Source: an uncultured Candidatus Saccharibacteria bacterium (GTDB lineage Bacteria > Patescibacteriota > Minisyncoccia > SW-4-49-11). Taken from it: DNA of 60,966 bases. The stretch is from the NCBI GenBank assembly GCA_964633865.1, contig CAZWIJ010000008.1:1-60966 (forward strand), written 5' to 3'. The stretch's first letter is position 1. Each line of letters begins with the position of its first letter. The notes under the pieces were generated by a model that made no database searches, had not been told where the DNA came from, and saw only the letters and a list, made by a program, of their open reading frames with translations. Positions 1-60,959 of the stretch are shown one piece after another. The translations under genes and the position numbers were made by a program.

Positions 1-73
1 AATCAAGAGTTGGAATTTCTATAATATGTGTCTTTATTCCATTTATAAGATATTGGTATATTTTTGTCTGCAT
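1..73 (-). CDS. Possible 5' end of a gene running off the left edge (partial)
   Basis: The minus-strand ATG at 73-71 opens a frame (MQTKIYQYLINGIKTHIIEIPTLD...) that stays open to position 1. A promoter lies upstream at 105-132. Only 24 codons are visible, so no function can be called. Confidence 0.3.
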   Translation of the reverse strand, partial: MQTKIYQYLINGIKTHIIEIPTLD

Positions 74-275: not shown

Positions 276-2435
276 ATGAGTCAAATACAAGATATCTCTT
301 TTCAACCTTTTGCTTGCTGTATTTGGGACTACTGTAAAAATTCTCAAACACTCACAATATTCTTGGTGAATGAAGAACAAGATGTAAAAATAGAAGGTGA
401 AGATACAGAAGATATTTACAATTTTTTAAAAAGTTGTAATGGATTAAATACTATTAGTGAGATTTCTAATGAGTTACAAATTGATCTACAAAAATGTATT
501 TTAATATGTGACTTTTTATTACAAGAAAAAGCTATATATGATTCTAGACAATTATATAAATGGTTTTTAACTTGTTCTCAAAATCCAAATTATTTTTCTA
601 GATCTATAACTAGACAAGATGCTATTGATATTCCTTTAGAAAAAAATACTGAATACAATCAGAATCCTGAGTACTCAACAAATTCTTCATTTGAATCAAT
701 ACTAACTAACCTTTTCCTTAAAAGAAAAAGTTGTAGAAATTTTGATAACAAAAAACTATTAAGCAAAGAATCTATAATGTTTTTACTTAAAGGAATGCTT
801 AGAGTTGAAGATGTTTGGACATTACCATCAGCAGGAGGTATGTATTCATTTGTTCCAATAGTAATATTCCCTAGAGAAGTTGAGGATATTAAAAAAGGAG
901 TCTATGCCTACAATCCTCAGACCTACTCTCTATACAAATGGAGAGATGAAGATTATTTTCAATCTATTGGTTGGTATGAAAGACTTTTAGATTCAAAACA
1001 TTTTGTAGCATGTGCTACTATGATAGTATTATTAACATCAAATATTTCCAAAATTGATAAAAAATATTCAAATCGAGCTTTAAGATTTGCTCTTATTGAA
1101 GCCGGTCATATAGCTCAGAATGCAATATTATTATCTACTGAAAAAGAAATTGGTTGTTTAGAGTACGGAGGATTTGATGATTTGGTTGCAGAAATGATTG
1201 TTGATTATAAAAAATTAACAACTCTAACCTGCTTGATATTTGGAGTTCCTGAAGATACTTCTAAGATTGATATTAAGGAGAATTCATTGTATCAGCTTGA
1301 GCACAAATACCCCCACTTACATAGTTCTCTTATCAGAACTAAAAGATCATTAGAAGAATATACTTCTTATTCTTTAGGTTATGTATCTAGAGAACACTCA
1401 CAATATACTGGATTTGGTTCTGGAACAACGAGTGAAGAAGCTTCTTTGAAATCCATAGTTGAAAGTATCGAAAGAGAAGTCTCAATGGGCTTATGGTTTG
1501 ATAAACAATGTTCTATAAAAGACCTGGATTATCCAAATTTTAACCAAAATGAAATTTGGGGATATCATAAAAAAGTTTTCAGTCTAACTTCCTTGAAAAG
1601 ATTAAATGAAACTGATATTACTGATTGGGTTTTAATGAAAAATATCAAAGGAGATGATCTAAAATATGCTTTATCAGATATGATATTTTACGGACATAAT
1701 CCAAAATATGGCTTTAGTAATTCAAACGGAATAGCTGGAGATATTAATTTAGATAGAGCATTTAAATCAGCTTTATTAGAGTTAATCGAGAGAGATTCAT
1801 TTTTAGTTATTTATCATACTAAGAGGGTTGTTAGTCAAATTGATTTTAAAATGTTACCAAAATGGTTACAGCTACAAATCACTAGTTTGAAGAAAATTGG
1901 ATATAAAACAACTGTTCTTGACATAACTTTAGATAGTATACCAGTTTATTTGATTTGCATTCATTCTACTGAAAAACACCCTTGTTTTGTCTGTGGAGCT
2001 TCAGCAGGGTTTGAATACGAAAGTATTCTTTTAAAAGCATTTAGCGAAGCTGAATCTATGCTGTTAAGTTGGCAAGATAATTGTGAAGAACCGTTGCATG
2101 AACCAGATGTTAATACACCTCACAAACATGCTTCTCTTTATATGAATCCTATTTATTTAAAGAATATCTCTTGGATATTAAATGCACCTGTTACAGATAC
2201 TATATCCACTAATAAGTTTTGTTTAGAGGATTTAATTGAAAAATACAACCCATATATTGTAGATTTATCATCAAAAAATAAATCTAGTTTTATTAAGGTT
2301 GTTAAGGTCTTAAGTTCTGAATTACTTCCTATGTACTTTGGGTTTGGATTAGAACCAATAAACCATTCTAGAATTAATAAACTTGGTCTAAAGTGGATTA
2401 ATAAATATCCTAGTTTTCCTCATTTCTTTTCTTAA
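276..2435 (+). CDS. Three-module fusion: RRE-like wHTH, SagB-type FMN dehydrogenase and YcaO cyclodehydratase domain
   Basis: 719-aa ORF. Residues ~40-90 look PqqD/RRE-like (EDIYNFLKSCNGLNTISEISNELQIDLQKCILICDFLLQEKAIYD). Residues ~140-335 carry SagB/nitroreductase motifs (LKRKSCRNF, PSAGGMYSF, ALIEAGHIAQN, GGFDD). Residues ~370-719 carry YcaO motifs (GFGSGTTSEEASLKSIVESIEREVS, SNGIAGDINLDRAFKSALLELIERDSF, C-terminal PSFPHFF). Confidence 0.85.
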   Translation: MSQIQDISFQPFACCIWDYCKNSQTLTIFLVNEEQDVKIEGEDTEDIYNFLKSCNGLNTISEISNELQIDLQKCILICDFLLQEKAIYDSRQLYKWFLTCSQNPNYFSRSITRQDAIDIPLEKNTEYNQNPEYSTNSSFESILTNLFLKRKSCRNFDNKKLLSKESIMFLLKGMLRVEDVWTLPSAGGMYSFVPIVIFPREVEDIKKGVYAYNPQTYSLYKWRDEDYFQSIGWYERLLDSKHFVACATMIVLLTSNISKIDKKYSNRALRFALIEAGHIAQNAILLSTEKEIGCLEYGGFDDLVAEMIVDYKKLTTLTCLIFGVPEDTSKIDIKENSLYQLEHKYPHLHSSLIRTKRSLEEYTSYSLGYVSREHSQYTGFGSGTTSEEASLKSIVESIEREVSMGLWFDKQCSIKDLDYPNFNQNEIWGYHKKVFSLTSLKRLNETDITDWVLMKNIKGDDLKYALSDMIFYGHNPKYGFSNSNGIAGDINLDRAFKSALLELIERDSFLVIYHTKRVVSQIDFKMLPKWLQLQITSLKKIGYKTTVLDITLDSIPVYLICIHSTEKHPCFVCGASAGFEYESILLKAFSEAESMLLSWQDNCEEPLHEPDVNTPHKHASLYMNPIYLKNISWILNAPVTDTISTNKFCLEDLIEKYNPYIVDLSSKNKSSFIKVVKVLSSELLPMYFGFGLEPINHSRINKLGLKWINKYPSFPHFFS

Positions 2436-2458
2436 ATAGAATAATCAAAAATTATTAT

Positions 2459-2492
2459 GACAAGGTATTTTTATAACACCTTGTCTTTTTTT
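2459..2492 (+). terminator. Intrinsic terminator after the YcaO fusion gene
   Basis: Stem GACAAGGT (2459-2466) pairs with ACCTTGTC (2478-2485) and is followed by T7. The right arm overlaps the 3' end of the convergent gene. Confidence 0.6.
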
Positions 2493-3331
2493 ATGTCTAA
2501 CCATAATTGCCATATTTCTAAAGGCTCTTTTTTAGTTATTTCTATCCATGAAAATTTATATTTTTCTTGAATATCTCTAATTATAATATATCCTAAAGAA
2601 TAACCTAACCACTGAGGATGAATTTCATCTCCCATAAATAAAGCATCATACTGAGAATCTTCTAAAAAAGCATTTTGATTCCAATTATTAGCAAATTCAG
2701 GAACAAAAGATATAAGAGTTTTTTCATACTCTTTATTTATTTTTTCGATCCAAGGTGATTTTTTACCCCCTACAATCTCATCACGAAAATATTCTGCCAA
2801 ACCCTCAAATATTAATATCTGTCCTATTGTTTCCCAATTATGATATTCATGAATAATTACATGGTGATATTCATGAGCAATAGTGTCTTGTAAACTTTTT
2901 TTCCAATTTTCAGTAGATGTATTTATACTAATAAAAATAGTACCACCTATTGTAGGAGCATATCCCATAACTCCATCTAATTCCTCTAAAAAAAATTTAT
3001 AAAATGTTGGTAAAACTATAATATTTATTTTCTTTGGAAGAGGAAGTTTTTTATTAGATTTTATTAGTATGTCTTCTATTATCAACTTAATTTCACTTTC
3101 ATTATAATTTATAACTGGTATTTTGTCAGGAAGTTGTGTTACATTCCAAAAATATTCAGAATCATCTTGTGACAAACTACTAAATAATTCAGGAAATAAA
3201 ATTTTGGCTTCATTTCTAATATTATTACTTATTAAATTTGAATCAAAATTATATTTTAAAAGAGACAAAAAAGAAACAATATTATAATCCATAGATAATT
3301 TATTGACATTAATTAATAATAATGATACCAT
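2471..3331 (-). CDS. Putative zinc metalloprotease (HExxH; DUF2268-like)
   Basis: 286-aa ORF with AHEYHHVIIHEYH, which contains an HExxH motif. It is convergent with the YcaO gene. The family assignment rests on motif recall only. Confidence 0.5.
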   Translation of the reverse strand: MVSLLLINVNKLSMDYNIVSFLSLLKYNFDSNLISNNIRNEAKILFPELFSSLSQDDSEYFWNVTQLPDKIPVINYNESEIKLIIEDILIKSNKKLPLPKKINIIVLPTFYKFFLEELDGVMGYAPTIGGTIFISINTSTENWKKSLQDTIAHEYHHVIIHEYHNWETIGQILIFEGLAEYFRDEIVGGKKSPWIEKINKEYEKTLISFVPEFANNWNQNAFLEDSQYDALFMGDEIHPQWLGYSLGYIIIRDIQEKYKFSWIEITKKEPLEIWQLWLDIKKDKVL

Positions 3332-3408
3332 TTATTTAATTGATAAGCAAGTTATTTATAAAAATCTTGCCAACTATATTGTTCTATAAAATTCAAGGAT
3401 TAACCTTT

Positions 3409-3513
3409 ATGAAACTCAAAATAATTGTCTCAAAAGTTCAAAAAAACAGTAGTAATGCTGTCGCTATGAAGTCTGTCGGTAAATGTGGTGGAGATAAATG
3501 TAAGTTGGGTTAA
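3409..3513 (+). CDS. Unannotated 34-aa ORF; candidate RiPP precursor peptide
   Basis: Hand translation gives MKLKIIVSKVQKNSSNAVAMKSVGKCGGDKCKLG. An AAGGA RBS lies about 10 nt upstream and its own hairpin terminator follows at 3535-3566. It sits between the two peptidase genes. The C-terminus is Gly/Cys/Lys-rich. Confidence 0.5.
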   Translation: MKLKIIVSKVQKNSSNAVAMKSVGKCGGDKCKLG

Positions 3514-3534
3514 ATAAAAATAATCTAATTATAA

Positions 3535-3566
3535 GGAGTGGTTTTTATAAATCACTCCATTTTTTA
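3535..3566 (+). terminator. Intrinsic terminator after the 34-aa ORF
   Basis: GGAGTG (3535-3540) pairs with CACTCC (3553-3558) and is followed by a T-run. Confidence 0.55.
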
Positions 3567-3641
3567 TTATACAAAATTTATTATAATAAAACAAACTATT
3601 ATATAACATGGTTTATTAATTTACAAGTTTAAATCAAAGAC

Positions 3642-4670
3642 TTATTTTAGAGAGGTGAAATATTCTTGAAAATCTTGTGTTTGTAAAAGTTTTATTTTAT
3701 AATAAATATCTTCCAGAGAATTATTCTGGATATCTGTTATTTTATTATACAATTGCAACCTATTTAATGTAGATTTATAATTTATTCCGTCAATATCCAT
3801 TCCTAATCCTGATAAATATATTTTTTTTATATAATCAAAAGCTTTTTTAAAGCTTTTATATTCAAATAGATTAAGATTTATATCAATATCAGAAATAATA
3901 GAGAAATATTTTTTATTTCCTCTATTAAAAATTAGGCTCTCCATATTATTTTTATATACTACTTCTTCCAACCAAGAAAGAAATATATCTTGCGTTATTG
4001 TATAATTAATTAAATATTCATATATTAGCTCTTTTGAGGAAGTTTTCATAATTTTCATTTCACTTTTTTTAATTGCTTCTATAGAACTTTTTTGTTTAAA
4101 GATATTTTGAAAGTCTTTTATCCAATCATCTTGCCAATTTCCTATAAAATAATTTTCTATAGAACTTTTTTGTACTGAGGTATTCCAATATTCTTGAGCT
4201 TCCTTACAAATTTTATAAGTAAGTTCTCCTTCTTCCCAATTACCAACTAATGAGTGAAGTTTTGGAATATATTTTTGGACTCTCTTTTTATGATAAAAAG
4301 ATGAGCTTTCAGTATATTCTTGAATTTCTTCATAAATTTCTCTACTTACAAAAGAAAAGTCTTTCTCTTGTAAATCAGAATTATAAATCATGTTAGATAA
4401 GAACACTTTGACTAATTCTATGTCTTTTATATCAAACTGGGCATAAATTCTTACAGAATTGGGATCTGTGACAGCCTCTAATTTCCCAAATAAATTATAT
4501 ATATCTTCTGAAAGCTTATTATAATCTTTATCTTTATTCCCATAAAACAAAAGGTGTTCAGCTAAATGGGTAAACCCTTGTTGGTCTCTAGTTTCTTTCT
4601 GTGAAGATATCTGTATCTCTAACATTAATCCAAGTGTATATTTCCAATTTAAATGATGATATTTTATCAT
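3642..4670 (-). CDS. M16 (pitrilysin/insulinase) family metallopeptidase, short form
   Basis: 342-aa ORF with the inverted zinc motif HxxEH in GFTHLAEHLLFYGN near the N-terminus, as in M16 peptidases. Confidence 0.7.
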   Translation of the reverse strand: MIKYHHLNWKYTLGLMLEIQISSQKETRDQQGFTHLAEHLLFYGNKDKDYNKLSEDIYNLFGKLEAVTDPNSVRIYAQFDIKDIELVKVFLSNMIYNSDLQEKDFSFVSREIYEEIQEYTESSSFYHKKRVQKYIPKLHSLVGNWEEGELTYKICKEAQEYWNTSVQKSSIENYFIGNWQDDWIKDFQNIFKQKSSIEAIKKSEMKIMKTSSKELIYEYLINYTITQDIFLSWLEEVVYKNNMESLIFNRGNKKYFSIISDIDINLNLFEYKSFKKAFDYIKKIYLSGLGMDIDGINYKSTLNRLQLYNKITDIQNNSLEDIYYKIKLLQTQDFQEYFTSLK

Positions 4671-4697
4671 GATAGGTATATTTTATATAAGTAATTT

Positions 4698-4729
4698 ATA
4701 AAAATAAGGAAGTAATATGTTACTTCCTT
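4698..4729 (-). terminator. Intrinsic terminator of the 48-aa gene
   Basis: A perfect 10-bp stem, AAGGAAGTAA (4706-4715) with TTACTTCCTT (4720-4729). On the minus-strand RNA it is followed by ATTTTTAT. Confidence 0.6.
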
Positions 4730-4746
4730 GAAACGGTATTTATAGA

Positions 4747-4893
4747 CTATTTATTGAAAGAGCTTCTGCCTTTATCTCTTCCCTTGTCTTTCTTAGAATG
4801 TTCTTCACCATTCTGATGTCCAACATTTCTTTCTCGATTAGCATTCTGCTGATTTCTGGCAGCTTTCTTTTCCCAACTGTGTTTTTTAGCCAT
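4747..4893 (-). CDS. Small basic hydrophilic protein (48 aa), unannotated
   Basis: Hand translation gives MAKKHSWEKKAARNQQNANRERNVGHQNGEEHSKKDKGRDKGRSSFNK. It has its own promoter (4924-4953) and terminator (4698-4729). It falls below the ORF-track length cutoff. Confidence 0.5.
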   Translation of the reverse strand: MAKKHSWEKKAARNQQNANRERNVGHQNGEEHSKKDKGRDKGRSSFNK

Positions 4894-4923
4894 CTTAACT
4901 TTTTTCAAATAAAGTACATATTC

Positions 4924-7154: not shown

Positions 7155-8288
7155 TTAATTATTAATGTAAATTTCTGGAGTAATTAAACCATTAAATGAG
7201 GTTGAACAAGCTGTAGTATATGCACCTGTATTTAAGATAATTATCTTATCTCCTAATTTTATATCTTCTGGCAAATCATAATTTTTAAACATAATATCTA
7301 TACTATCACAAGATGGACCTGCAATATTATAAGGAATTTTTCTTACATTATCTTTATAAATATTTCCATTTCTAATTAAAAATAATTCATACGAAAAATT
7401 CTCTAATGTCTCCATTAATCCATTATATACTCCCACATCTAAATAAATCCAATTTTCTTCATTGTTTTTCTTTAGTAAAATGACTTCAGCCACCATATAT
7501 CCACAATCACCTATTAACCCCCTCCCTGGCTCCAAAACTAATTTTGTATTTTGGAAGTTTTGAAAATAACTCTTAAAAGAATCTTTAATTACTTTCTTTA
7601 TCTCATTGAGATTTGGTATTTCTTTTTTATATTTTACAGGTATTCCACCTCCTAAATTTAGGAAACTTAAATTTATATTTATATCTTTGGCTAATTGAAA
7701 TATTTCTGCAGATGTTTTCATTGCTTTTTCCCAATTATCCAGATTCAGACACTGAGATCCAACATGAAAGTTAAGACCGATCACATCAAGATTTTTACTT
7801 TGTGCATATTCCATCAAAGGAATTGCTTCACTCTTATCTACTCCAAATTTATTTGTAAGTGGCCAATCACTACCTTCATTATCTACTTTAAGTCTTAGAT
7901 ATACCTGTGATTTTGGAGCCAATCTTTCTATTTTATCTATTTCCTGATAACTATCGAAAGAGAATCTATTTACACCATATTCATAAGCTTTTTCTATAAA
8001 CTTACTTATTTTGATTGGATTACTAGATATTATTCTCTCTGGACTAATTCCTAAAGATATCAGTTGATCTAATTCAGATATTGAAGCTATTTCAAAATTA
8101 CAACCCAAATCATCTAATATTTTAAGTATCTGATCATCTGAATTAGCTTTTATTGCATAATATATATCTATATTTTCAAATGTATCTTTTATTTTTGTAT
8201 ATTTGTCTTGAACTTTTGACTCACTAATAACCAAAACTGGTGTTTCTAACTTTTCTACAATATCTTTATTTATATGAGATATATCCAT
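7155..8288 (-). CDS. PLP-dependent Orn/Lys/DAP-type decarboxylase (alanine-racemase fold)
   Basis: 377 aa. YYAIKANSD contains the PLP lysine; GGGIPV, EPGRGL and GPSCDSIDI (ODC-like CDxxD) are also present. Confidence 0.7.
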   Translation of the reverse strand: MDISHINKDIVEKLETPVLVISESKVQDKYTKIKDTFENIDIYYAIKANSDDQILKILDDLGCNFEIASISELDQLISLGISPERIISSNPIKISKFIEKAYEYGVNRFSFDSYQEIDKIERLAPKSQVYLRLKVDNEGSDWPLTNKFGVDKSEAIPLMEYAQSKNLDVIGLNFHVGSQCLNLDNWEKAMKTSAEIFQLAKDININLSFLNLGGGIPVKYKKEIPNLNEIKKVIKDSFKSYFQNFQNTKLVLEPGRGLIGDCGYMVAEVILLKKNNEENWIYLDVGVYNGLMETLENFSYELFLIRNGNIYKDNVRKIPYNIAGPSCDSIDIMFKNYDLPEDIKLGDKIIILNTGAYTTACSTSFNGLITPEIYINN

Positions 8289-8301
8289 ACTATAAGATTT
8301 A

Positions 8302-8330
8302 TTGACAAAACATTTATATAGTTGTATAAT
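8302..8330 (+). promoter_or_regulatory. Consensus sigma70 promoter
   Basis: TTGACA at 8302-8307, a 17-nt spacer, and TATAAT at 8325-8330. Confidence 0.6.
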
Positions 8331-8362
8331 ATCATAGTTCTTTCGTTTTGAAAAGTAAATTT

Positions 8363-8896
8363 ATGTTAAAAGTTGAATGTTTTGAAAAAATAGAATCTTT
8401 TTTAGAAAAAAAGATTCTCTGGGATTTATATAACATATCCTTTGGAGATGATATTATCTGTGCTCAGGATCAAATGTGTTATGACGAAGATTTTTTCACA
8501 AAAGCTTTGGATGATCCCGACTATCTCAAGTTCATTCTTTATCAATACAACTCTCCTGTAGGGATTGCTCTTATGACTAACAATTTAGTCAAAGCAAGAA
8601 TTGCTTATTGCAATGATAAGTTTTTGATAAATAAATATCCTGAATATGCTAAGGATAAAAAAATTTATTATATAACATGTTTATGTGTTGATAAGAAACA
8701 TAAAGGTGAAGTAAGATATATATTATTTAATATGTGTAAATTTATTTATTTAAATCAAGCTATTGTTGTTTTTGATTATTCCAATAACAAAAATTCTTCA
8801 CTACCAATTCTAATAAAAAGAGTTGCGAATAGAATCTCTAAAATAAATGAAACAACTTTGGATCATCAAATCTTTGAATCCATGGTTTTTACCTAA
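8363..8896 (+). CDS. Hypothetical protein, possibly a GNAT-like acetyltransferase
   Basis: The ORF-track start at 8348 is a TTG too close to the predicted TSS, so the ATG at 8363 (MLKVECFEKIE...) is preferred. IYYITCLCVDKKHKGEVRYILFNMCKFI followed by VVFDYSNNKN weakly resembles GNAT motif A. Confidence 0.45.
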   Translation: MLKVECFEKIESFLEKKILWDLYNISFGDDIICAQDQMCYDEDFFTKALDDPDYLKFILYQYNSPVGIALMTNNLVKARIAYCNDKFLINKYPEYAKDKKIYYITCLCVDKKHKGEVRYILFNMCKFIYLNQAIVVFDYSNNKNSSLPILIKRVANRISKINETTLDHQIFESMVFT

Positions 8897-8935
8897 ACTC
8901 ATCCTCCCATTATTGGGAGCTTTTTTATTTTATTT
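8887..8935 (+). repeat. Copy 1 of a repeated ~45-nt terminator module
   Basis: TTTTACCTAAACTCATCCTCCCATTATTGGGAGCTTTTTTATTTTATTTAGATT, with hairpin CTCCCA (8904-8909) and TGGGAG (8914-8919) plus T6. Near-identical copies occur at 11638-11690 and 15292-15333, and a variant at 10717-10750. Confidence 0.7.
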
Positions 8936-8964
8936 AGATTATTTATTCACCTTATGTCTTAATA

Positions 8965-9004
8965 ATTTTTATAATAATCTCAGATTTATCTTTTTTAATT
9001 TTAT
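8965..9004 (-). pseudogene. ~40-nt remnant of the 3' end of an S66 (MccF-like) LD-carboxypeptidase gene
   Basis: The minus strand reads AAAATTAAAAAAGATAAATCTGAGATTATTATAAAAATT, nearly identical to the last codons (KIKKDKSEII...) of the pseudogene at 11876-12286. It abuts the stop codon of the hydrolase gene. Confidence 0.5.
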
Positions 9005-9005
9005 T

Positions 9006-9857
9006 TTATTTTTCTAAAAATTCTTTTATTATTAAATCTTGTAATCTTTTTGAAATACCATTTAAATGATGGTCTACATAAGGAAAATAATGAAATTCTA
9101 TATTTTTAAAATCATTGTTAATCAAACTATGATAAAATGCTATTGTTTTTAAAGGATTAACATTAATATCTAATCCCCCTTGAATAAGTAATATTTTTGT
9201 ATTTTTATTGATTTTTGAAAAATTATAAAATGGAGATCTCTTTAAATTTTCTGATTTAGATTCTACATCATACATATCTTTTCTAAATTCTTTTAACTCT
9301 GGTCTCTTTTCATAACTATCTTCTAAATCTAACTCTGGATTAATAATTATAGCTTTTTTGATCCAATCTTGACTTTTAAGTAAATTTAGAGCCATCAGTC
9401 CACCTCTACTTGCTCCATAAATATTTATATTATTAATATCGGCATTTGGAATTTCTTTTATTACTTCTTTTAAATTAATTAAATCTTTTAGATCCATACC
9501 TGATAATTCATCTTTTCCTTCACTTCCATCATTTCCAGAATATTGGGTTGTAATAACTATAAATCCCCAAGAAGCTATTCGAGATAAAGGAAATGTTATT
9601 ACTCTATCATTTATTATCCCAAAATTTTTACTTCCACCTCTGGCATATATTAAGACAGGTAACTTTTTAGTAGAATCTTTTGGAGTAACAATATAACCTT
9701 TGATTTTTCTTCCATCAGAATTATACCAAATCTCATAACATTGAACTGAATTTATTATAGATATTAGATTTTCCTTTTTTTCCATTGACAATTCTTGAAA
9801 AAAATCTTTTTTTAAAAATTCTTCATAATTGATTTTAGTTTGAGTTATAATTTTCAT
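9006..9857 (-). CDS. Alpha/beta hydrolase (S9 prolyl-oligopeptidase/dienelactone-hydrolase-like), paralog A
   Basis: 283 aa. Nucleophile elbow IYGASRGG, with a C-terminal D and H (VDHHL). Clear paralogy to 12301-13143 (LPVLIYARGGSKNFGII versus LPVIIYNRGGSKDYGII). Confidence 0.7.
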   Translation of the reverse strand: MKIITQTKINYEEFLKKDFFQELSMEKKENLISIINSVQCYEIWYNSDGRKIKGYIVTPKDSTKKLPVLIYARGGSKNFGIINDRVITFPLSRIASWGFIVITTQYSGNDGSEGKDELSGMDLKDLINLKEVIKEIPNADINNINIYGASRGGLMALNLLKSQDWIKKAIIINPELDLEDSYEKRPELKEFRKDMYDVESKSENLKRSPFYNFSKINKNTKILLIQGGLDINVNPLKTIAFYHSLINNDFKNIEFHYFPYVDHHLNGISKRLQDLIIKEFLEK

Positions 9858-9889
9858 AGGTTTATATAATTAATAATATATAATTAAAA

Positions 9890-9914
9890 TGTGGATTAAA
9901 ATAATTAATCCACA
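9890..9914 (-). terminator. Hairpin terminator
   Basis: TGTGGATTAA (9890-9899) pairs with TTAATCCACA (9905-9914). It lies downstream of the stop of the 9937-10350 gene and is T-rich after the stem on the minus strand. Confidence 0.5.
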
Positions 9915-9936
9915 CAGATAACTAGAATTTATTGTA

Positions 9937-10350
9937 TCAATCAGAGCAAGCAAATTTAATCAAATCTAGTATTTCTAATAATTGTTTAAATTCTTCTTGA
10001 TAATCTGAATTAGAATACAATTTATCATGTAAATCTAATATTAAAGATTCAAATTCTTTAGAAATTTTTTTTGATTCAACAATACCAGCTATACTCAAAA
10101 CTTGTTCTAAATATCCTGTTGTAATAATTTGTCTATCAGGAAAATCATTTGGCATACTAAAATAATTATTAGCAAATATATATTTTTCATCTAAAAAAAA
10201 TGGCATTATCATATGAATATCTAATTTTTGATTTAAAAAATCTGTCATTTTTCCAGAAAACAAAATCAATGATTCTTTAGCTTTTTGTGAAGCTCTTGAA
10301 TTTTTAGCTTTTTTCAGAATATCAATTATTTCAGTATATAATGTTTTCAT
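9937..10350 (-). CDS. Hypothetical protein (137 aa)
   Basis: Intact ORF in a clean intergenic context. I recognise no motif. Confidence 0.5.
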   Translation of the reverse strand: MKTLYTEIIDILKKAKNSRASQKAKESLILFSGKMTDFLNQKLDIHMIMPFFLDEKYIFANNYFSMPNDFPDRQIITTGYLEQVLSIAGIVESKKISKEFESLILDLHDKLYSNSDYQEEFKQLLEILDLIKFACSD

Positions 10351-10394
10351 AAAGTAATAAGGTAGATGTGTTTACATCTACCAATAAAAATTAA

Positions 10395-10619
10395 TTATTT
10401 AGTATTGTCTTTACAGACTTTACATTCTCCACGATGGACTACTCCGATTTCTCCAGTTGAAGGATTATTCCAACCATGACAGTGATTTCCTGATGATTTA
10501 TCAGTTCCAACATAGGAATCTCTTTGACCAGTTTTTTCATTGACTTTATCAGAACCCCATGTACCTTCTGAATCAGATACTTTATCTGAACTAGTTCCCC
10601 AACCAAACAACTTAGCCAT
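10395..10619 (-). CDS. Small hydrophilic Gly/Ser/Asp/Lys-rich protein (74 aa) with an HCH...CxxC tail
   Basis: GGAGG RBS (minus strand) 8 nt before the ATG. Strong promoter at 10660-10687. Sequence MAKLFGWGTSSDKVSDSEGTWG...NHCHGW...GECKVCKDNTK. Confidence 0.6.
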   Translation of the reverse strand: MAKLFGWGTSSDKVSDSEGTWGSDKVNEKTGQRDSYVGTDKSSGNHCHGWNNPSTGEIGVVHRGECKVCKDNTK

Positions 10620-10659
10620 TTTTAAACCTCCAAATGGTTTTAATTAAATGTACATATTT

Positions 10660-10687
10660 AGTATATCAAAAAAAAAAGATTTGTCAA
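10660..10687 (-). promoter_or_regulatory. Promoter with a poly-T spacer
   Basis: The minus strand reads TTGACAAATCTTTTTTTTTTGATATACTAAATATGTAC (-35 at 10687-10682, -10 TATACT at 10665-10660). Confidence 0.6.
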
Positions 10688-10716
10688 AAAGACTTATAAA
10701 TCTATTTACTTCATCT

Positions 10717-10750
10717 AAAAATCATACTCCCATTTTTGGGAGTTTTTTTA
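10717..10750 (+). repeat. Orphan variant copy of the terminator module
   Basis: AAAATCATACTCCCATTTTTGGGAGTTTTTTTATTTTATTTAAGATTTTT, with hairpin 10726-10743 plus a T-run. No plus-strand gene precedes it. Confidence 0.55.
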
Positions 10751-10798
10751 TTTTATTTAAGATTTTTACTACTATTTTAATAAGTTGTACTTTAAAAT

Positions 10799-10830
10799 AA
10801 TTAAAAACCACTCTTCACTTAAAGAGTGGT
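10799..10830 (-). terminator. Intrinsic terminator of the 68-aa gene
   Basis: AACCACTCTT (10805-10814) pairs with AAGAGTGGTT (10821-10830), with a T-run on the minus strand. Confidence 0.6.
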
Positions 10831-10871
10831 TAAAATTTAATATAGATTAAGTTTAGTATATTTCTTAAACA

Positions 10872-11078
10872 TTAATCATCTTTATTAGTACCAAATACAG
10901 CATTGAAAATTGAATAAAGTATTGGACCTGTAGTTGAGTCAGAAACTTTATCATAATTTCTTTCTTGTAAAGATCCTTCACTAGCTGCATCATCTCGTGC
11001 TTGATGCCAAGATTGACTTACTTCTTTACAAGATGATCCAGTGTCTTTAGCTGCATCATTTTTACCATATCCAGACAT
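10872..11078 (-). CDS. Small hydrophilic protein (68 aa)
   Basis: MSGYGKNDAAKDTGSSCKEVSQSWHQARDDAAS...YDKVSDSTTG. It shares the hexapeptide DKVSDS with the 74-aa protein. A GAGG RBS lies upstream. Confidence 0.55.
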   Translation of the reverse strand: MSGYGKNDAAKDTGSSCKEVSQSWHQARDDAASEGSLQERNYDKVSDSTTGPILYSIFNAVFGTNKDD

Positions 11079-11136
11079 TTTTCATACCTCATGCGTGAAT
11101 TGACATATTTAAATTATCATAGTATATTATATTTGT

Positions 11137-11680
11137 CAATATTCAATCTATTTAAAATTATGTCTATAAAAAAATTAAATGCAGATCTTATTTTGATTAG
11201 CTCTTATAATAAAAATTTTCAATTAATAGCTAATCTAATTTTTCATAATAATAAAAAAGAAGAAGATTTCATAAAATATTTTTCTGATAAATTTTTCTCA
11301 GACTCTCCAAATAATAGTAAAAAAATATCAGAAAATTATTTTTTAGATAATATTTTTTGGGACATAGAACAATATCTCGTAGATCATAAATATATACAAA
11401 TAATTAATTATAATGATCTTCTGAAAATAGCAGAAAATAATTTAAATATAAAAGATTTATTCATTATAAAGAGTTTTTTAGGTTTTGGAATACAAAAAGG
11501 GGATCCTCTTACACTTTCTGAATTTAGGGAAAAATATTCTTTTGCATACAATACTGATGATATTATACTCAGTATTGGTAAATACTTTAATCTTGTTTTA
11601 AAACTAACCAAAGACTTAAATATATGAAATCTATATATTTTACCTAAAATCATCCTCCCATTATTGGGAGCTTTTTTATT
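11137..11680 (+). repeat. Direct repeat copy 1 (~545 bp), identical to 14791-15335
   Basis: Read side by side, the two copies match at every base I compared, from CAATATTCAATCTATTTAAAATT through GGGAGCTTTTTT. The only difference is T6 versus T7 at the end. The offset is 3654 bp. Confidence 0.9.
11160..11627 (+). CDS. Hypothetical 155-aa protein, duplicate copy 1
   Basis: The ATG at 11160 (MSIKKLNADL...) is the start shared with the second copy. The ORF-track extension from 11091 lies outside the repeat. The C-terminal IIKSFLGFGIQKGDPLTLSEFREKYSF is faintly HTH / sigma region-4-like, which is speculative. Confidence 0.65.
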   Translation: MSIKKLNADLILISSYNKNFQLIANLIFHNNKKEEDFIKYFSDKFFSDSPNNSKKISENYFLDNIFWDIEQYLVDHKYIQIINYNDLLKIAENNLNIKDLFIIKSFLGFGIQKGDPLTLSEFREKYSFAYNTDDIILSIGKYFNLVLKLTKDLNI

Positions 11681-12300: not shown

Positions 12301-13143
12301 TTATAAATTTTTCTTTATAAAATCCACTCCTCTTTCTAAAACAAATTTTTTATACAAAGGCAAACAATGTTGATCATCTAATATATGTAAATTATAATCT
12401 ATCCCTGCTTTAGATAATTCTAAAGCTAGTTTTAAAGTATCTTCCAAAGGAGCTCTGTCGTCTTTTGTTCCATGAAAAATAATTAAAGGGACATTTTTCG
12501 GAAATTTATCAACCAAGTATAATGCCGATCTCTTTTTATTTTCTAAACCTGAATCAACATCATACATATCTCTTCTAAATTCTTTTAATTTAAGTCTCAA
12601 TTTATAATTATTCTCAATATCTGTTGGAGCACAGTTAATTACTCCTGATTTTATCCAATTTACCTCATTAATAAGAATATATGTCATCATACCACCTCGA
12701 CTATCTCCCCACATACTTATTTTAGATTCATCACTAATTTCAGATTCTTTGATACATTCATATAAATCAATTACTGATTGTATATCTTCTTTACCACCGC
12801 ATTCATCCTTACCTTCACTACCTGCATTACCTGTGTATTGAGAACAAAAAACACTAAAACCTGATAATGCTAATGGGATTAAAAGATTTATTATGATACG
12901 AAAGTCAATTATACCATAATCCTTTGATCCTCCTCTATTATAGATTATAACCGGTAGCTTTTCTGTTGCATATTTAGGATATAAATGAAATCCATTCACA
13001 TTATAATTCTGTGATTTATATGTTATATCAAAAATTTCAGTTGCTTCAATTTGTTTCAATATCTTTTTAGCTTGAACTTCTCCTCTTCTTTTTATCAAAT
13101 TCTCTTTTAGATTTCTGTGAAATGTATAAGGATTTTTTTTCAT
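12301..13143 (-). CDS. Alpha/beta hydrolase (S9-like), paralog B
   Basis: 280 aa. Nucleophile elbow MWGDSRGG. Collinear similarity to 9006-9857. Confidence 0.7.
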   Translation of the reverse strand: MKKNPYTFHRNLKENLIKRRGEVQAKKILKQIEATEIFDITYKSQNYNVNGFHLYPKYATEKLPVIIYNRGGSKDYGIIDFRIIINLLIPLALSGFSVFCSQYTGNAGSEGKDECGGKEDIQSVIDLYECIKESEISDESKISMWGDSRGGMMTYILINEVNWIKSGVINCAPTDIENNYKLRLKLKEFRRDMYDVDSGLENKKRSALYLVDKFPKNVPLIIFHGTKDDRAPLEDTLKLALELSKAGIDYNLHILDDQHCLPLYKKFVLERGVDFIKKNL

Positions 13144-15498: not shown

Positions 15499-16326
15499 AT
15501 GTTAAACCATATTAAAGCCATAATTAAAGCCTGTGATAAATTAAATTTAGAGTATAATATACTACATAAATCTCAAAATGTATTAGAAATAAAAACACCT
15601 AAACAAAATCTTCTTTTCACAAATGGAATTACTCCTTTTAATAGTGAATCCGTCGCAAATATCTGTAGAGACAAAGATTTTACATATACTCTTTTTCATA
15701 ATGACTTAAACTTACCAAAAACAGTTAGTTTTTTTGATCCAAATGGAGGTGAAGAGTATAAAAGTTATATTGAATTTAAGAGTCATCAAATCATATGTGA
15801 GCAAATTATAAATCAATTTTCTTTTCCTGTAATAGTGAAAAGAAATTCTGGCTCACAAGGTAAAAATGTTTTTAAATGTACTTCCAAAAAAGAGATTCTC
15901 AAAGCTTTAGAATTAATTTTTGACAAAAAAAGTAATCAATATGATTATGTAGCTCTTGCTCAAGAATTTGTGAATATAAAAAGAGAATTTAGAATAATTT
16001 TATTCCAATCAAAGATAATGTTAGTTTATGAAAAAATTATTAATAATGCTAAGTTTGTAGGAAATTTAAGTCCTCTACATTGGGAGAAATCCAAAACTGA
16101 AGTTATTACTGATAAAGTTCTGATAAAAAGAATTCAAGAATCTATCAAATCAATGTCAAAATTTCCAGATTTTCAATATATTGGATTAGATATTGTTATT
16201 GATGATAAAGATAAATTTTGGATTATTGAACTAAATTCTCATCCAGGATATACAAAATTCTTAGAAGATAATGACGAGGAGCATTTAGTAAATATGTTTG
16301 AGAAAATACTAAAAAATTATATCTAA
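15499..16326 (+). CDS. ATP-grasp family ligase (RimK / glutathione-synthetase-like)
   Basis: 275 aa. FPVIVKRNSGSQGKNVF, REFRIILF and IGLDIVIDDKDKFWIIELNSHPG are typical ATP-grasp motifs. Confidence 0.65.
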   Translation: MLNHIKAIIKACDKLNLEYNILHKSQNVLEIKTPKQNLLFTNGITPFNSESVANICRDKDFTYTLFHNDLNLPKTVSFFDPNGGEEYKSYIEFKSHQIICEQIINQFSFPVIVKRNSGSQGKNVFKCTSKKEILKALELIFDKKSNQYDYVALAQEFVNIKREFRIILFQSKIMLVYEKIINNAKFVGNLSPLHWEKSKTEVITDKVLIKRIQESIKSMSKFPDFQYIGLDIVIDDKDKFWIIELNSHPGYTKFLEDNDEEHLVNMFEKILKNYI

Positions 16327-56984: not shown

Positions 56985-59939
56985 TTATCCATATATCTCT
57001 CCCCCACCCCAAACTTCACTCACCAAATCTGCTATCTTCTGATTGCTAAATTGCTTTTTAAATTTGATTTTGACATCATCTCCAAAGAATTTTTCGGCAT
57101 ATCTAATTTTTTGCTTCTCTTCATCTCTTAAACTCTGCTCATCTGTATTTTTGGTCTCAACGATAAAATAAAGCTTTTTATTACCATCTTTCATATTCAG
57201 AACATAAGCAAAATCTGGGGAATAAGATTTACCACCAGCCACAGGAATTTTGATAGAATTTTTTGGTATTTTGGTAAAAACAGTTATTTCAGAAAGATTT
57301 GTCTTGATATTATCTTTTTCAAGCTCACTATCATAAAAACTTTTGTCAAATAAATAATTTTCAGCTACTCTATCATCCGCAGGAAAAACACCTATATCTG
57401 AAGAATTTATTTCTTGTTTTGGCTCTCCATCTTGATTTGTAAATTTGGTAGGGTGAACTTTACTTGATATTTTTTGATATTCTACACCGCATTGATTGAT
57501 CGCATTATACATAAGATAATTATCAAACTTTGTTTTAAAAGCTCTTAGATTCAACTGATTCAGATAATTATTTATTTTAAGGTGCAAATCTGTACTTATA
57601 AAAGCTTTGTGTATAGTTTTTATATTTATATTAAGCAATTGAGATAATTGCTCTAAAAACTCACTATATTTGATTGTGCTAATTTTAATATTATCATTTC
57701 CATAAATAGCCTGCTCTTCTCTTACCATAGCTTGATTATTCTCAATACTAACTTTTTTAGTTTTCTCCCTAGCTCCTTCCAGCATAAAAAAAGAATTTCT
57801 TAGAAAATCAGTAAAAATTTGCTCAAATTTCGACTCATTTGCTATTTTATATTCCAAAATAACTTTCTGATTAATTTTTTCCCATAAATCTTTTAGTTGA
57901 GTATATTTTTCAGCCCTGATCGCAACTTTTTTTCTAGAATCAGTAGATTTTCTAATTTTATTAGAATCAATTCCATCAAAAATAAGTGGGTATGCTGATT
58001 TTATATATTCATAACCATTTTCCTTAAAATTATTATTCCTCTTAATAATCCCCTTATTATCCAAATCTTCCAACAATTTTTCTTCAGTAATATGATATTT
58101 TTCTATGATATTTTTGATCATACCCTCATCAAGCTTGGTATAAATTATCTCTCTTGAAATTGCTCCAGATTTTTTATTAATCTCATTCACAAGCTTATCT
58201 ACAAAATCATTTTCCGTAAAATCTACAAAATAATTCAGATAAAATTGTTCGTCTTTGACTCGGTTTCCATATTGATTGACAGGCAAACGAAGCCCCCTAC
58301 CCACTTCTTGTAATTTTGAAATGTCTGATCCGCTACTTCTAAGCTTACAAATCTGAAAAATATTTGGATTATCCCAACCTTCTCGCAATGTCCATTTAGA
58401 AAAAATAAATCTTCTTGGATTATCCAAACTCAAAACAGCTTGTTTGTCATGCAAGATTTCATTAACTTCTTTTTCAATTAATTCATCTTTTTCTGTATTA
58501 TCTTTGGAAAAATATCCTCCATGAGTCTTACTAATATCCTGTAAAGTTTTTTCTAAATAAGATCTATAAAAAATATCTTTTTCTGTATTCAAAAGATGCT
58601 CTGCCTCAGCTTTGATATACTTTTCAATTGTCTTTCTGATATATCCATCCTGATTTCTGTATTCATCTATATTATCAATAAAAAATAAGGTCAATGGTTT
58701 TATCTTGACCGATCTTGTAAGATATTCTTTTTCTTGCTCAAAATGATGTTTGATAGCCTTTTCAATAATAGTTTCTTGTAGAGTCTCTGAATAAGAGTAA
58801 GGATTTAATTTATCACCTTTCTTCAACTCCAATCCATTAGATAAAACTACAGTCCCTGTATTTAATTTTTCTATAAATAAATCTGCCATAGCCAAGTGAG
58901 CTTTTTCTAAACTCTCTTTTTTGGTTATCTTAAAGATTTTTTTAGTATTATTGTCAATCAAATGAAAAGTTGCTTCCACACCATCAGAATAAATAAATTT
59001 GAGCATAATATTTTTACCTTCATCAAATTCGGTAATATGACCAATCACTCCTTTCACCAAATTTTGATTAAAAGAATCAACTGCAGACAGAGTATAAAGC
59101 AAATTATGATAATCTTTTAGCTTAATTTTCTCTATTTTTCCCAAAATATTTTTTTGTTTAATCTCTTTTTCTGGGAAAGTTGCCCCATATCTGATCATAA
59201 CTTGAGGATTCATTTTTTGAATATTTTCCCAAGTTTTATTAGAATTACCAAATTTGTGAGGTTCATCAATAATCATAAAAGATTTAGTTGCAGAAATCGC
59301 TTCAAAAGGAATAGCATATTTATCCAAAATATTTTTATCAAAACTCTGTTTTAAAGTCTCAGAGTTTATCATACCAGCATTAATAATCAAAACTTGAATT
59401 TTATTTTTCTCAAAACTACCCGCATTCACAAAATTATTAATGGAAGCCGGCATATATGCTTTTTTGCCTTTATTGTTAGATTTCTTACTGTCTACAATAT
59501 GAAGCTGAATTTTTTTTCCATATTGCTCTTTGAAATGCTCTCTACTAGCCTCAGAATTCAAAAAATCAATTGTTCCTGCCTTGATAGGAAGAGTTGGAAC
59601 TACAATTATAAATTTAAAAATACCATATAGTTTATTTAACTCAAAAATAGTTTTGGCATAAGTATAAGTTTTACCAGTACCTGTTTCCATCATAATATCA
59701 AGAATATTTTGTTCTATATCTTTAGCTTGAATTTGGGTTAAATCAATAGAATTTCTTGATTGAACTTTTTTTATGTTCTCTCTATATCTAAAATTATCTT
59801 TAATCTCAAAGATTGGATTGATAAATTCTTTATTTACTCCCTTTGATTTTGTAATATCTACACCCTCAAAAATTTCAGTTACAGATTTTACTGCTAGCTC
59901 TTGATGTAATAAATTCTTCTCAAAGTTAAATCCAGCCAT
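56985..59939 (-). CDS. res: Type III restriction enzyme Res subunit (SF2 helicase plus PD-(D/E)xK nuclease)
   Basis: 984 aa. Walker A METGTGKTYTY, DEAH-like IIDEPHKF, helicase motif VI QEVGRGLRLP. C-terminal nuclease motif SPDFAYV...YFIVETK. Confidence 0.8.
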   Translation of the reverse strand: MAGFNFEKNLLHQELAVKSVTEIFEGVDITKSKGVNKEFINPIFEIKDNFRYRENIKKVQSRNSIDLTQIQAKDIEQNILDIMMETGTGKTYTYAKTIFELNKLYGIFKFIIVVPTLPIKAGTIDFLNSEASREHFKEQYGKKIQLHIVDSKKSNNKGKKAYMPASINNFVNAGSFEKNKIQVLIINAGMINSETLKQSFDKNILDKYAIPFEAISATKSFMIIDEPHKFGNSNKTWENIQKMNPQVMIRYGATFPEKEIKQKNILGKIEKIKLKDYHNLLYTLSAVDSFNQNLVKGVIGHITEFDEGKNIMLKFIYSDGVEATFHLIDNNTKKIFKITKKESLEKAHLAMADLFIEKLNTGTVVLSNGLELKKGDKLNPYSYSETLQETIIEKAIKHHFEQEKEYLTRSVKIKPLTLFFIDNIDEYRNQDGYIRKTIEKYIKAEAEHLLNTEKDIFYRSYLEKTLQDISKTHGGYFSKDNTEKDELIEKEVNEILHDKQAVLSLDNPRRFIFSKWTLREGWDNPNIFQICKLRSSGSDISKLQEVGRGLRLPVNQYGNRVKDEQFYLNYFVDFTENDFVDKLVNEINKKSGAISREIIYTKLDEGMIKNIIEKYHITEEKLLEDLDNKGIIKRNNNFKENGYEYIKSAYPLIFDGIDSNKIRKSTDSRKKVAIRAEKYTQLKDLWEKINQKVILEYKIANESKFEQIFTDFLRNSFFMLEGAREKTKKVSIENNQAMVREEQAIYGNDNIKISTIKYSEFLEQLSQLLNINIKTIHKAFISTDLHLKINNYLNQLNLRAFKTKFDNYLMYNAINQCGVEYQKISSKVHPTKFTNQDGEPKQEINSSDIGVFPADDRVAENYLFDKSFYDSELEKDNIKTNLSEITVFTKIPKNSIKIPVAGGKSYSPDFAYVLNMKDGNKKLYFIVETKNTDEQSLRDEEKQKIRYAEKFFGDDVKIKFKKQFSNQKIADLVSEVWGGGEIYG

Positions 59940-59945
59940 AGATTT

Positions 59946-60959
59946 CTAGTTTTTAGTTAATAGGTTTGAGTTTTTAGTTGTTTTTGAATTTAAAAGCAAT
60001 AAAATTATTCCGATCATTTTTTCTTTATCTTTTGGATTAGATTCAGCAATAAGAATAGTCAAAGTAGATAATGTCTCAGGGTTTATCTTTTCTTTAAACT
60101 GAATTCCTGCTTTTTGTAAGAACCAGATAAAACTAAAAGCCCCACTTCTTTTATTTCCATCAATAAAAGGATGATTTTTAATTATAAAATAGAATAAATG
60201 AGCAGATTTTTCTTCTAAAGTTTGATATACATCTTGACCAAAAACACTTTGAAATACATTTCCAATAATTCCTTCTAAATTTCCTTTTTGTCTTTCCTCT
60301 CCAAAAATTGTAGTCGCTTCTTTTTTAGTGATTAATTCTAATTTTAACTTTTCTAAATCTATTTTTAATTCCTCTGCTGTAACTTGAATTTTCTTTTTAG
60401 AACCTTTTTTAGGGAATTTGTCCTTATCATAACTGTCAAGAGAAAACCAAGTATAAGAAAAACTTTTGATAAGTTCCAAAATATCATCGGTTTTTAAATT
60501 TTGATTATTTTTAACTAACAACTTTATATCTTCCACTGCTTCCAGAAAAGACTGATGATTCTTTTCTATACTATTTGGATTAATAGTAAATCCTTTGGTT
60601 ATATGCTCTTTTAGAGTTTGAGTTGCCCATTTTCTAAAATTTGTACCTGTAACTGAATCTATTCTGTACCCAACAGAAATTAATACATCTAAATTATATT
60701 CTTTTATCTTCCTTTTTATAATTCTATCACCTTCTTTTTGAACTTGTAAGGATTCTTTACAAGTTGAGTTCTCATCTAATTCAGCACTTTTATAAATGTT
60801 TTTAAGGTGAGTTGTAATATTCTGTGGAGTAACATTAAATATATCAGCTATTTGTTTCTGACTTGCCCAAACAGTATCTTTATCAAAGTCTGGATGCAAT
60901 ATAATTTCACCTTTTTTTCCTTGGTAGATTATATTTAATTTATCCTTTTTTCCTTCCAT
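59946..60959 (-). CDS. RhuM-family N-terminal region fused to a Fic/Doc-type domain
   Basis: 337 aa. The N-terminal part TVWASQKQIADIFNVTPQNITTHLKNIY...YNLDVLISVGYRIDSVTGTNFRKWATQTLKEHITKGF matches RhuM-family proteins. The C-terminal motif HPFIDGNKRSGA is Doc-type, HxFx(D/N)(A/G)NKR. Confidence 0.75.
   Translation of the reverse strand: MEGKKDKLNIIYQGKKGEIILHPDFDKDTVWASQKQIADIFNVTPQNITTHLKNIYKSAELDENSTCKESLQVQKEGDRIIKRKIKEYNLDVLISVGYRIDSVTGTNFRKWATQTLKEHITKGFTINPNSIEKNHQSFLEAVEDIKLLVKNNQNLKTDDILELIKSFSYTWFSLDSYDKDKFPKKGSKKKIQVTAEELKIDLEKLKLELITKKEATTIFGEERQKGNLEGIIGNVFQSVFGQDVYQTLEEKSAHLFYFIIKNHPFIDGNKRSGAFSFIWFLQKAGIQFKEKINPETLSTLTILIAESNPKDKEKMIGIILLLLNSKTTKNSNLLTKN

Follow-up and report, generated by a model that had tools for sequence, protein, structure and literature searches.

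A conserved small gene beside a three-domain YcaO enzyme in a Candidatus Saccharibacteria contig is most probably the gene for the precursor of a very small thiazole-containing peptide

Can a reading frame of only 34 codons, wedged between two peptidase genes, encode the substrate of the YcaO enzyme that lies next to it? We addressed this question in positions 1 to 60,966 (the window) of contig CAZWIJ010000008.1 of assembly GCA_964633865.1 from an uncultured Candidatus Saccharibacteria bacterium. A preliminary description, made from the letters alone, had proposed the open reading frame (ORF) at 3409..3513 as a precursor peptide gene with a leader and a short core. We found that the 34-codon frame is a real, conserved small gene. 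Its product is most probably the precursor of a very small peptide with thiazoles, which the adjacent three-domain YcaO enzyme would install. In our favoured reading, to which we assign a probability of roughly 0.7, the ORF is the structural ('A' peptide) gene of a cluster for a linear azol(in)e-containing peptide (LAP) or thiazole/oxazole-modified microcin (TOMM). Its minimal two-Cys core would be modified by the enzyme, predicted to consist of a RiPP (ribosomally made peptide with post-translational modifications) recognition element (RRE), a SagB-type dehydrogenase and a YcaO domain, and a DUF2268 peptidase would cleave the leader. The peptide gene and its signals are located as follows.

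3409..3513, plus strand: candidate precursor peptide gene of 34 amino acids (aa), MKLKIIVSKVQKNSSNAVAMKSVGKCGGDKCKLG, running from ATG to TAA; based on a homologue and on the ratio of nonsynonymous to synonymous substitution rates (dN/dS)
3409..3465, plus strand: proposed leader, residues 1-12 (MKLKIIVSKVQK, conserved motif of beta-strand type), and variable linker, residues 13-19; based on the family alignment and dN/dS
3466..3510, plus strand: proposed core region, residues 20-34 (MKSVGKCGGDKCKLG), with Cys26 and Cys31 as candidate heterocyclisation sites
3395..3399, plus strand: Shine-Dalgarno sequence AAGGA, 9 nt upstream of the ATG; the closest relative, locus L007, has AGGAG at a similar spacing
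3303..3331, plus strand: promoter-like site TTGACA-17 nt-TACCAT with a TG extension (TGaTACCAT); a consensus match only, 10/12
3535..3568, plus strand: intrinsic-terminator-like hairpin with T-run; stem of 10 bp, loop of 4 nt

Most of what had been read from the letters held up. The translation is an exact match, the AAGGA ribosome-binding site is present, and so is the GGAGTG/CACTCC hairpin downstream of the gene, at 3535..3558 with arms GGAGTGGTTT and AAATCACTCC followed by the T-run ATTTTTTATT. Terminator-like sites occur above chance in this part of the window (four found in 2300..4800 versus 0.5 expected). The ORF is also, as described, the sole plus-strand unit between two minus-strand peptidase genes, DUF2268 at 2471..3331 and M16 at 3642..4670. 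The statement that no convincing promoter lies upstream has to be revised, since a promoter-like site does exist, with TTGACA at 3303 and TACCAT, preceded by TG, at 3326..3331. Promoter-like matches are at chance level in the region, whose DNA has 25% GC (21 found versus 19.5 expected), and the site carries weight only through the alignment of its TTGACA with TTGAGA in L007. The L007 homologue has a promoter-like site at 2827..2855, a scan-level match only.

The gene had been called unannotated. This is true only in part: gene callers do list the 34-aa gene on public metagenome contigs. The window peptide has no match in Pfam or NCBIfam, even at a lenient E-value of 0.01, and eight related peptides gave none at E-values up to 1 except for a spurious metallothionein. 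A search of the protein collection with a 57-aa upstream-extended frame returned a single match, one near-identical 34-aa cluster that represents the K2Q variant of the peptide. The TTG at 3340 that would open this 57-aa frame was rejected as the start, since L007 does not conserve it and no ribosome-binding site accompanies it. The length of the ORF is by itself unremarkable, because the first 5 kb of the window contain 55 ORFs of at least 20 aa, and ORFs of 30-57 codons are common. The excess over chance is the conservation, not the ORF length. Moreover, 3409..3513 is the sole Cys-containing intergenic ORF in the cluster.

The closest relative of the enzyme is 58% identical and is found on L007 and L041, two loci of the same species, a Minisyncoccia metagenome-assembled genome (MAG). 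Gene order and orientation are the same as in the window: the enzyme (+), DUF2268 (-) and a plus-strand ORF of 35 aa, MKLNVQVTKVQKKIVSTATMKSIGKCGGDKCKATA. In L007 this ORF has its own AGGAG, and its terminator, at the equivalent place, is different and GC-rich. The preliminary description would have given up the idea if the frame were absent or disrupted at syntenic loci; in L007/L041, the only close syntenic lineage, the homologue is intact. Comparison of the window with L007 gives 75% DNA identity for the ORF, while its flanks can barely be aligned. Over the whole ORF dN/dS is 0.22/0.77 = 0.29 (Nei-Gojobori). Codons 1-12 give a ratio of 0.34, and codons 13-19, a linker that is nearly unconstrained, one of 0.61; the value falls to about 0.05 (dN 0.03, dS 0.61) in codons 20-32 (MKS[VI]GKCGGDKCK), with one conservative replacement and three synonymous changes. 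As far as these small numbers go, the changes are distributed as in a translated peptide in which the C-terminal block matters most, and the substitutions indicate selection on the peptide sequence. In the proposed division into leader and core, the leader of about 23 residues was only approximate, as the conserved block begins at Met20. A scan of metagenome DNA for GKCGGDKCK returned one locus, L041. Variation within the population is uninformative, because the contigs of six samples match the window at 99.97-100% identity.

These data bear on the possibility that the ORF is untranslated and that the region acts as a regulatory region or 5' untranslated region, possibly antisense, of the DUF2268 or M16 gene, the frame being accidental. 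Frames of 30-57 codons are frequent enough in this DNA to arise in this way, and DUF2268 lacks a promoter-like site in 3332..3408; from the closest one on the minus strand (3626..3598), the transcript would be antisense to the ORF. This would, however, leave the coding-type substitutions unexplained, with synonymous changes tolerated and replacements avoided in the Cys block, as well as the retention of frame, start, Shine-Dalgarno sequence and plus-strand terminator in a relative whose flanks are otherwise unalignable. In addition, no Rfam family matches 3250..3700. We therefore regard an untranslated region as highly improbable.

Does the association of such a peptide with the enzyme extend beyond this lineage? 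A scan of a one-genome-per-species collection with an alignment of six enzyme homologues gave 30 loci, about 26 of them with enough flanking sequence; the same collection gave no matches with a single enzyme sequence, only with the alignment. The loci belong mostly to Patescibacteria (Saccharimonadales, Uhrbacteria, Minisyncoccia, Yanofskybacteria and WWE3), and the remainder are a few Clostridia/Lachnospiraceae MAGs and one cultured Mycolicibacterium. An ORF of 34-64 aa adjoins the enzyme gene in about 22 of the 26 informative loci, usually directly downstream and on the same strand. Common to these ORFs are a basic N-terminus, an alternating hydrophobic stretch of the type phi-x-V/I-x-V/T (LKVTT, VKVTV, VTITV, KVVVI, LKILT, ITVTV and IVTKV), often followed by Tyr, and a tail rich in Gly, Ser and Cys. 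ORFs of this composition have a density of 0.68 per kb close to the enzyme gene (within 450 nt), compared with 0.017 per kb in the remainder of these loci, an enrichment of about 40-fold. When a hidden Markov model (HMM) was built from 20 family peptides, with those of the window and L007 excluded, the window ORF ranked first among 556 ORFs of the window (E = 0.13).

The core region of the window peptide contains two Cys and one Ser. It had been considered unusually small. Small it is, but not unique, and it stands at the small end of a continuum, because two-Cys cores are also found in L012 and L014. Further arrangements were seen within the family. L018 carries two precursor copies (903..1007 and 4062..4172). 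L012 has two DUF2268 genes (2974..3741 and 9861..10514), and its precursor lies directly upstream of one of them and not beside the enzyme. In L027, the cultured actinobacterium Mycolicibacterium sp. 120266 (NZ_JAWQNH010000003.1), a fused family member is accompanied by a divergent candidate precursor, MDDLSTLDVVIETRTQASAVANSGSGGNCGNSGSSSNGGGGGGCHIRTED, upstream. This cultured carrier offers an experimental handle on the family.

The peptide might also be a real small protein that has nothing to do with the YcaO enzyme, for instance a metal-binding, membrane-active or regulatory peptide in a coincidental position. Binding of metal or nucleic acid is conceivable for a peptide with two Cys and many Lys, the gene has its own promoter-like site and terminator and hence forms no operon with the enzyme, and the exact peptide type is known from two lineages only. 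Coincidence is difficult to reconcile with a position relative to the enzyme and DUF2268 genes that is kept in L007/L041, and with the 40-fold enrichment of analogous Cys/Gly/Ser-rich ORFs beside the enzyme gene across phyla. Moreover, searches of the protein collection and of metagenome DNA found the peptide nowhere without the enzyme. We consider an unrelated small protein quite unlikely.

The favoured reading requires an enzyme with the corresponding activities and a peptidase. Their genes and domains are given here.

276..2435, plus strand: enzyme of 719 aa with RRE-like, SagB-type flavin mononucleotide (FMN) dehydrogenase and YcaO cyclodehydratase domains; Pfam, NCBIfam, PDB profile and Foldseek
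276..575, plus strand: RRE-like winged-helix domain, about residues 1-100, proposed leader-binding module; AlphaFold2 model and Foldseek
693..1250, plus strand: SagB-type (nitroreductase-fold) dehydrogenase domain, about residues 140-325, with K263-Y264; Pfam, NCBIfam and PDB profile
1413..2435, plus strand: YcaO domain, about residues 380-719, with ESIER (396), ELIERD (502) and C-terminal PSFPHFF; Pfam and alignment
2471..3331, minus strand: DUF2268 zinc peptidase of 286 aa with HEYHH at residue 153, proposed leader peptidase; Pfam, 9e-28

The two catalytic domains were assigned by profile searches. Pfam YcaO matches with E = 1e-27 (97.8 bits, above the cut-off of 25.7) and Pfam Nitroreductase with E = 1.7e-11 (45 bits, above 23.5). 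The NCBIfam SagB model TIGR03605 (E = 2e-21) stays just below its cut-off with 76.2 versus 78.4 bits, and the best NCBIfam match is the SagD-type model TIGR03604 (E = 7e-27). In the enzyme alignment K263, Y264, N266 and R267 (KYSNRALRF) are invariant; we take K263-Y264 to be the Lys-Tyr motif of TOMM dehydrogenases. Invariant in the YcaO domain are E396/E399/R400 and E502/E505/R506/D507, the latter aligning with the ExxERD of MJ1094, MusD and TruD, and the predicted ATP/Mg-binding motifs are intact. PDB profile matches comprise 3EO7, BmdC, McbC, ThcOx, MJ1094, MusD, TruD, LynD and McbD, and Foldseek matched the enzyme model to LynD, BmdC and MusD. As the full-length AlphaFold2 model was poor (predicted local distance difference test score, pLDDT, of 57), we used domain-level matches only. 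The N-terminal 100 residues, modelled as an isolated domain (pLDDT 69), form three strands followed by three helices, and their best Foldseek matches are the RREs of PbtF (8T19), McbB, TbiB1, ThcOx, MccB, TbtB and CteB (E 0.015-1, template modelling scores of 0.4-0.6). The architecture is RRE-like, SagB, YcaO, without an E1-like domain, for which there is no room between the three assigned domains of the 719-aa chain.

An exhaustive profile search gave 989 enzyme representatives at E <= 1e-30. The fusion enzyme is, by these matches, a large family, because the best 150 of the 989 are almost all full-length proteins of 700-750 aa. No further full-length homologues came from a word-index search that used the enzyme alignment. 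In L029, L030, L032 and L037 the SagB-type dehydrogenase, with an N-terminal extension, and the YcaO protein are encoded by separate genes that are adjacent or overlap; therefore, fused and split forms of the same system coexist. DUF2268 homologues adjoin the enzyme gene in at least 17 related loci, and judged from this gene order DUF2268 is the third conserved gene of the cassette. The DUF2268 protein has no sequence relative in the PDB. Three genes make up the conserved part of the cluster, namely those for the precursor, the single-chain RRE-SagB-YcaO enzyme and the DUF2268 zinc peptidase.

Several observations weigh against the favoured reading. The likeness of the window peptide to distant family peptides is at the level of composition and motif, and with the E-value of 0.13 homology is not statistically significant. 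The dN/dS values are based on 24 substitutions, four of them in the core, and on two lineages. Both Cys are preceded by Lys, while relatives mostly have Gly, Ser or Asn before Cys. The YcaO domain reaches 94.3 bits with TIGR03604, below the cut-off of 219.25. The RRE assignment comes from a medium-confidence model with weak Foldseek E-values. No transporter or immunity gene is evident beside the cluster in the window. Characterised azoline-forming YcaO proteins normally need an E1-like or Ocin-ThiF partner. No ThiF/E1-like Pfam match was obtained in any ORF of at least 130 aa in the 61-kb window, and the called genes around the enzyme in L001 to L010 include no E1-like or Ocin-ThiF protein. 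Finally, RREs fused to dehydrogenases are suspected to be vestigial (PMC7470986).

Some of these points raise the possibility that the peptide is a substrate for other chemistry: unoxidised thiazolines, modification of one Cys or of Ser22 only, a thioamide or amidine, or MusD-like ATP-dependent cleavage. By plain sequence search the best solved relative of the YcaO domain is the thioamide-forming MJ1094, and MusD, described in the PDB as 'YcaO-mediated ATP-dependent peptidase activity', is among the structural matches. The large distance to the SagD-type cut-off and the missing E1-like partner in the window point in the same direction. Yet in at least 150 family representatives YcaO is fused to a SagB-type dehydrogenase whose Lys-Tyr motif is intact, an arrangement that is only sensible if azolines are made and then oxidised. 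Furthermore, no TfuA gene lies nearby, the SagD-type cyclodehydratase model (7e-27) ranks over the thioamidation marker (5e-11), and the family cores are rich in Gly, Ser and Cys, like that of microcin B17. Other chemistry on this peptide is in our view unlikely.

We thus favour a LAP/TOMM precursor modified by the fusion enzyme. The leader-plus-core precursor that had been proposed for the YcaO fusion is supported by the L007/L041 homologue, the dN/dS values, the family ORFs and the RRE-like domain. The pathway may be pictured as follows. The peptide gene would have a transcript of its own, running from the promoter-like site (3303..3331) up to the terminator (3535..3568), and translation would start at the ATG at 3409. 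The hydrophobic and basic N-terminal stretch LKIIVSKV would bind as a beta-strand to the sheet edge of the RRE-like domain of the enzyme. ATP-dependent cyclodehydration by YcaO would convert Cys26 and Cys31 to thiazolines, which the fused FMN-dependent SagB domain would oxidise to thiazoles, each Cys thereby losing an expected 20 Da. The DUF2268 metallopeptidase would then remove the leader, cutting before or within the block that begins at Met20, perhaps assisted in the lineage of the window by two M16 peptidases. The product would be cationic, carry two thiazoles and measure about 15 residues or fewer; it might serve as an antibiotic, as a signal or in the dealings of an episymbiont with its host. 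More tentatively, we propose that RRE-SagB-YcaO may be a self-sufficient azole synthetase that works without an E1-like or Ocin-ThiF partner and defines a large, uncharacterised, Patescibacteria-centred family (at least 150 clusters at 50% identity), and that here it may make one of the smallest LAPs known.

The surroundings of the three genes differ between the loci. Two further peptidase genes flank them in the window.

3642..4670, minus strand: M16 peptidase of 342 aa, N-terminal M16 domain only, HLAEH at residue 35; Pfam
1..73, minus strand: 5' end of an M16 peptidase gene (first 24 of 418 aa, the remainder beyond the window; M16 and M16_C, HFFEH); tblastn of the L001 protein (73..2)

Public contigs with an identical enzyme gene carry the 418-aa M16 peptidase just upstream. 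The M16 peptidases were found only in the lineage of the window, and the upstream one is absent from L041. As cluster members we rejected M16, the S9 peptidase, the histidine kinase and the ornithine decarboxylase; none recurs beside the enzyme elsewhere, except for S9 in L012. The window contains two S9-family (prolyl-oligopeptidase-like) paralogues, at 9006..9857 (-) and 12301..13143 (-), and the relative in L012, a Uhrbacteria locus (10544..11449, minus strand), which is 41% identical, lies 3.4 kb from the enzyme and is present in no other locus.

An ABC-F-like ATPase with tandem nucleotide-binding domains and no membrane domains lies directly 3' of the enzyme in three Clostridia loci and one Saccharibacteria locus; coordinates of such genes are L010 2706..4166, L024 7084..8541, L026 5156..6613, L028 ~8077..9516 and L002 3190..4695. 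In the organism of the window, an ABC-F-like ATPase is found about 3.3 kb upstream of the enzyme, beyond the window. It could hint at immunity by ribosome protection, or have a housekeeping function.

The 77 nt upstream of the DUF2268 gene (3332..3408) hold no promoter-like site, the nearest on the minus strand being 3626..3598. A transcript from 3626..3598 would be antisense to the whole peptide gene, which suggests possible transcriptional interference; such matches are no more frequent than chance predicts. A very basic, Cys-free ORF of 48-53 aa, MAKKHSWEKKAARNQQNANRERNVGHQNGEEHSKKDKGRDKGRSSFNK, occupies 4747..4908 (-), between the M16 gene and the histidine kinase, and has a terminator-like hairpin at 4729..4706 (-). 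It is called as a gene on public contigs, while the other loci contain no homologue. At 15499..16326 (+) a RimK-like ATP-grasp protein is encoded, flanked by ORFs without Pfam matches. The region 56985..60959 (-), which encodes a type III restriction-like helicase/endonuclease (984 aa) and then, at the window end, a RhuM/Fic-domain protein, is likely a defence or mobile region. The remaining window is ordinary chromosome, with genes for an aminoacyl-tRNA synthetase, polynucleotide phosphorylase, elongation factor G, ribosomal proteins, RpoA and CTP synthase.

The Patescibacteria, or Candidate Phyla Radiation (CPR), are to our knowledge uncultured episymbionts with reduced genomes, and we know of no natural product characterised from any of them. 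If our proposal is true, the product of the self-sufficient synthetase would be the first defined CPR natural product, possibly used against or with the host. A cassette of three genes with a 34-aa substrate is small enough for synthesis and reconstitution in Escherichia coli. Should the single-chain enzyme act alone, azole installation without an E1-like partner would be demonstrated, and peptide engineering would gain a compact, leader-guided, thiazole-installing catalyst. Moreover, the leader motif and the link to DUF2268 provide a simple rule for finding the precursors of about 1000 related enzymes, which current precursor models miss.

How does this cluster compare with known systems? Its kind is already known. 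Sharrar et al. 2020 (mBio, PMC7298704) describe, by sequence prediction only, 110 LAP clusters in 93 CPR genomes, and these share with the window the host radiation and the combination of a YcaO protein with a nitroreductase-type dehydrogenase, a peptidase and a small precursor encoded alongside. In the example that they present, YcaO and nitroreductase are separate and the precursor has 84 aa, whereas the window combines them with an RRE-like domain in one chain of 719 aa, has a precursor of 34 aa with two Cys, and has DUF2268 as the conserved peptidase. A literature search of incomplete coverage found no description of a single-chain RRE-SagB-YcaO protein without an E1-like partner, of DUF2268 in RiPP clusters, or of the precursor family of the window.

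The microcin B17 system (McbA; McbB2CD; 6GOS/6GRH) uses, as we propose for the window, a YcaO protein (McbD) and an FMN dehydrogenase (McbC), a core rich in Gly, Ser and Cys, and leader binding by a winged helix-turn-helix/RRE. McbC, McbD and McbB are among the sequence or fold matches of the window enzyme, and family cores such as QQCGSGGCGGGAACGGNCGSGGGSGCGAG resemble McbA. In microcin B17, however, the RRE is carried by a separate E1-like scaffold dimer of the McbB type, a gene that is not present in the window. Here, the RRE-like domain is at the N-terminus of the dehydrogenase, all of it is fused to YcaO, and the core has two candidate sites only. The leader peptidase of microcin B17 is TldD/E; in the window DUF2268 is the proposed one.

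The cyanobactin heterocyclases LynD, TruD and PatD, single chains with an N-terminal RRE and a YcaO domain, and ThcOx, an azoline oxidase that bears an RRE, resemble the window enzyme with its RRE-like domain; they are among the top structural matches. In LynD and TruD the RRE lies within an E1-like domain that is fused to YcaO, and the oxidase is separate, whereas the window enzyme has no E1-like domain and its oxidase is placed between the RRE-like domain and YcaO. BmdC (7LY4), a tailoring oxidase of the nonribosomal peptide synthetase for bacillamide, combines an N-terminal RRE-like domain, seen crystallographically and considered a relic, with a long linker and a nitroreductase-fold thiazoline oxidase (PMC8795117). 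The profile of the window enzyme aligns over residues 48-323 of BmdC with E = 9e-28. A YcaO domain is lacking in BmdC, whose substrate is a dipeptide bound to a carrier protein, while for the window enzyme a leader-bearing candidate peptide is encoded next door.

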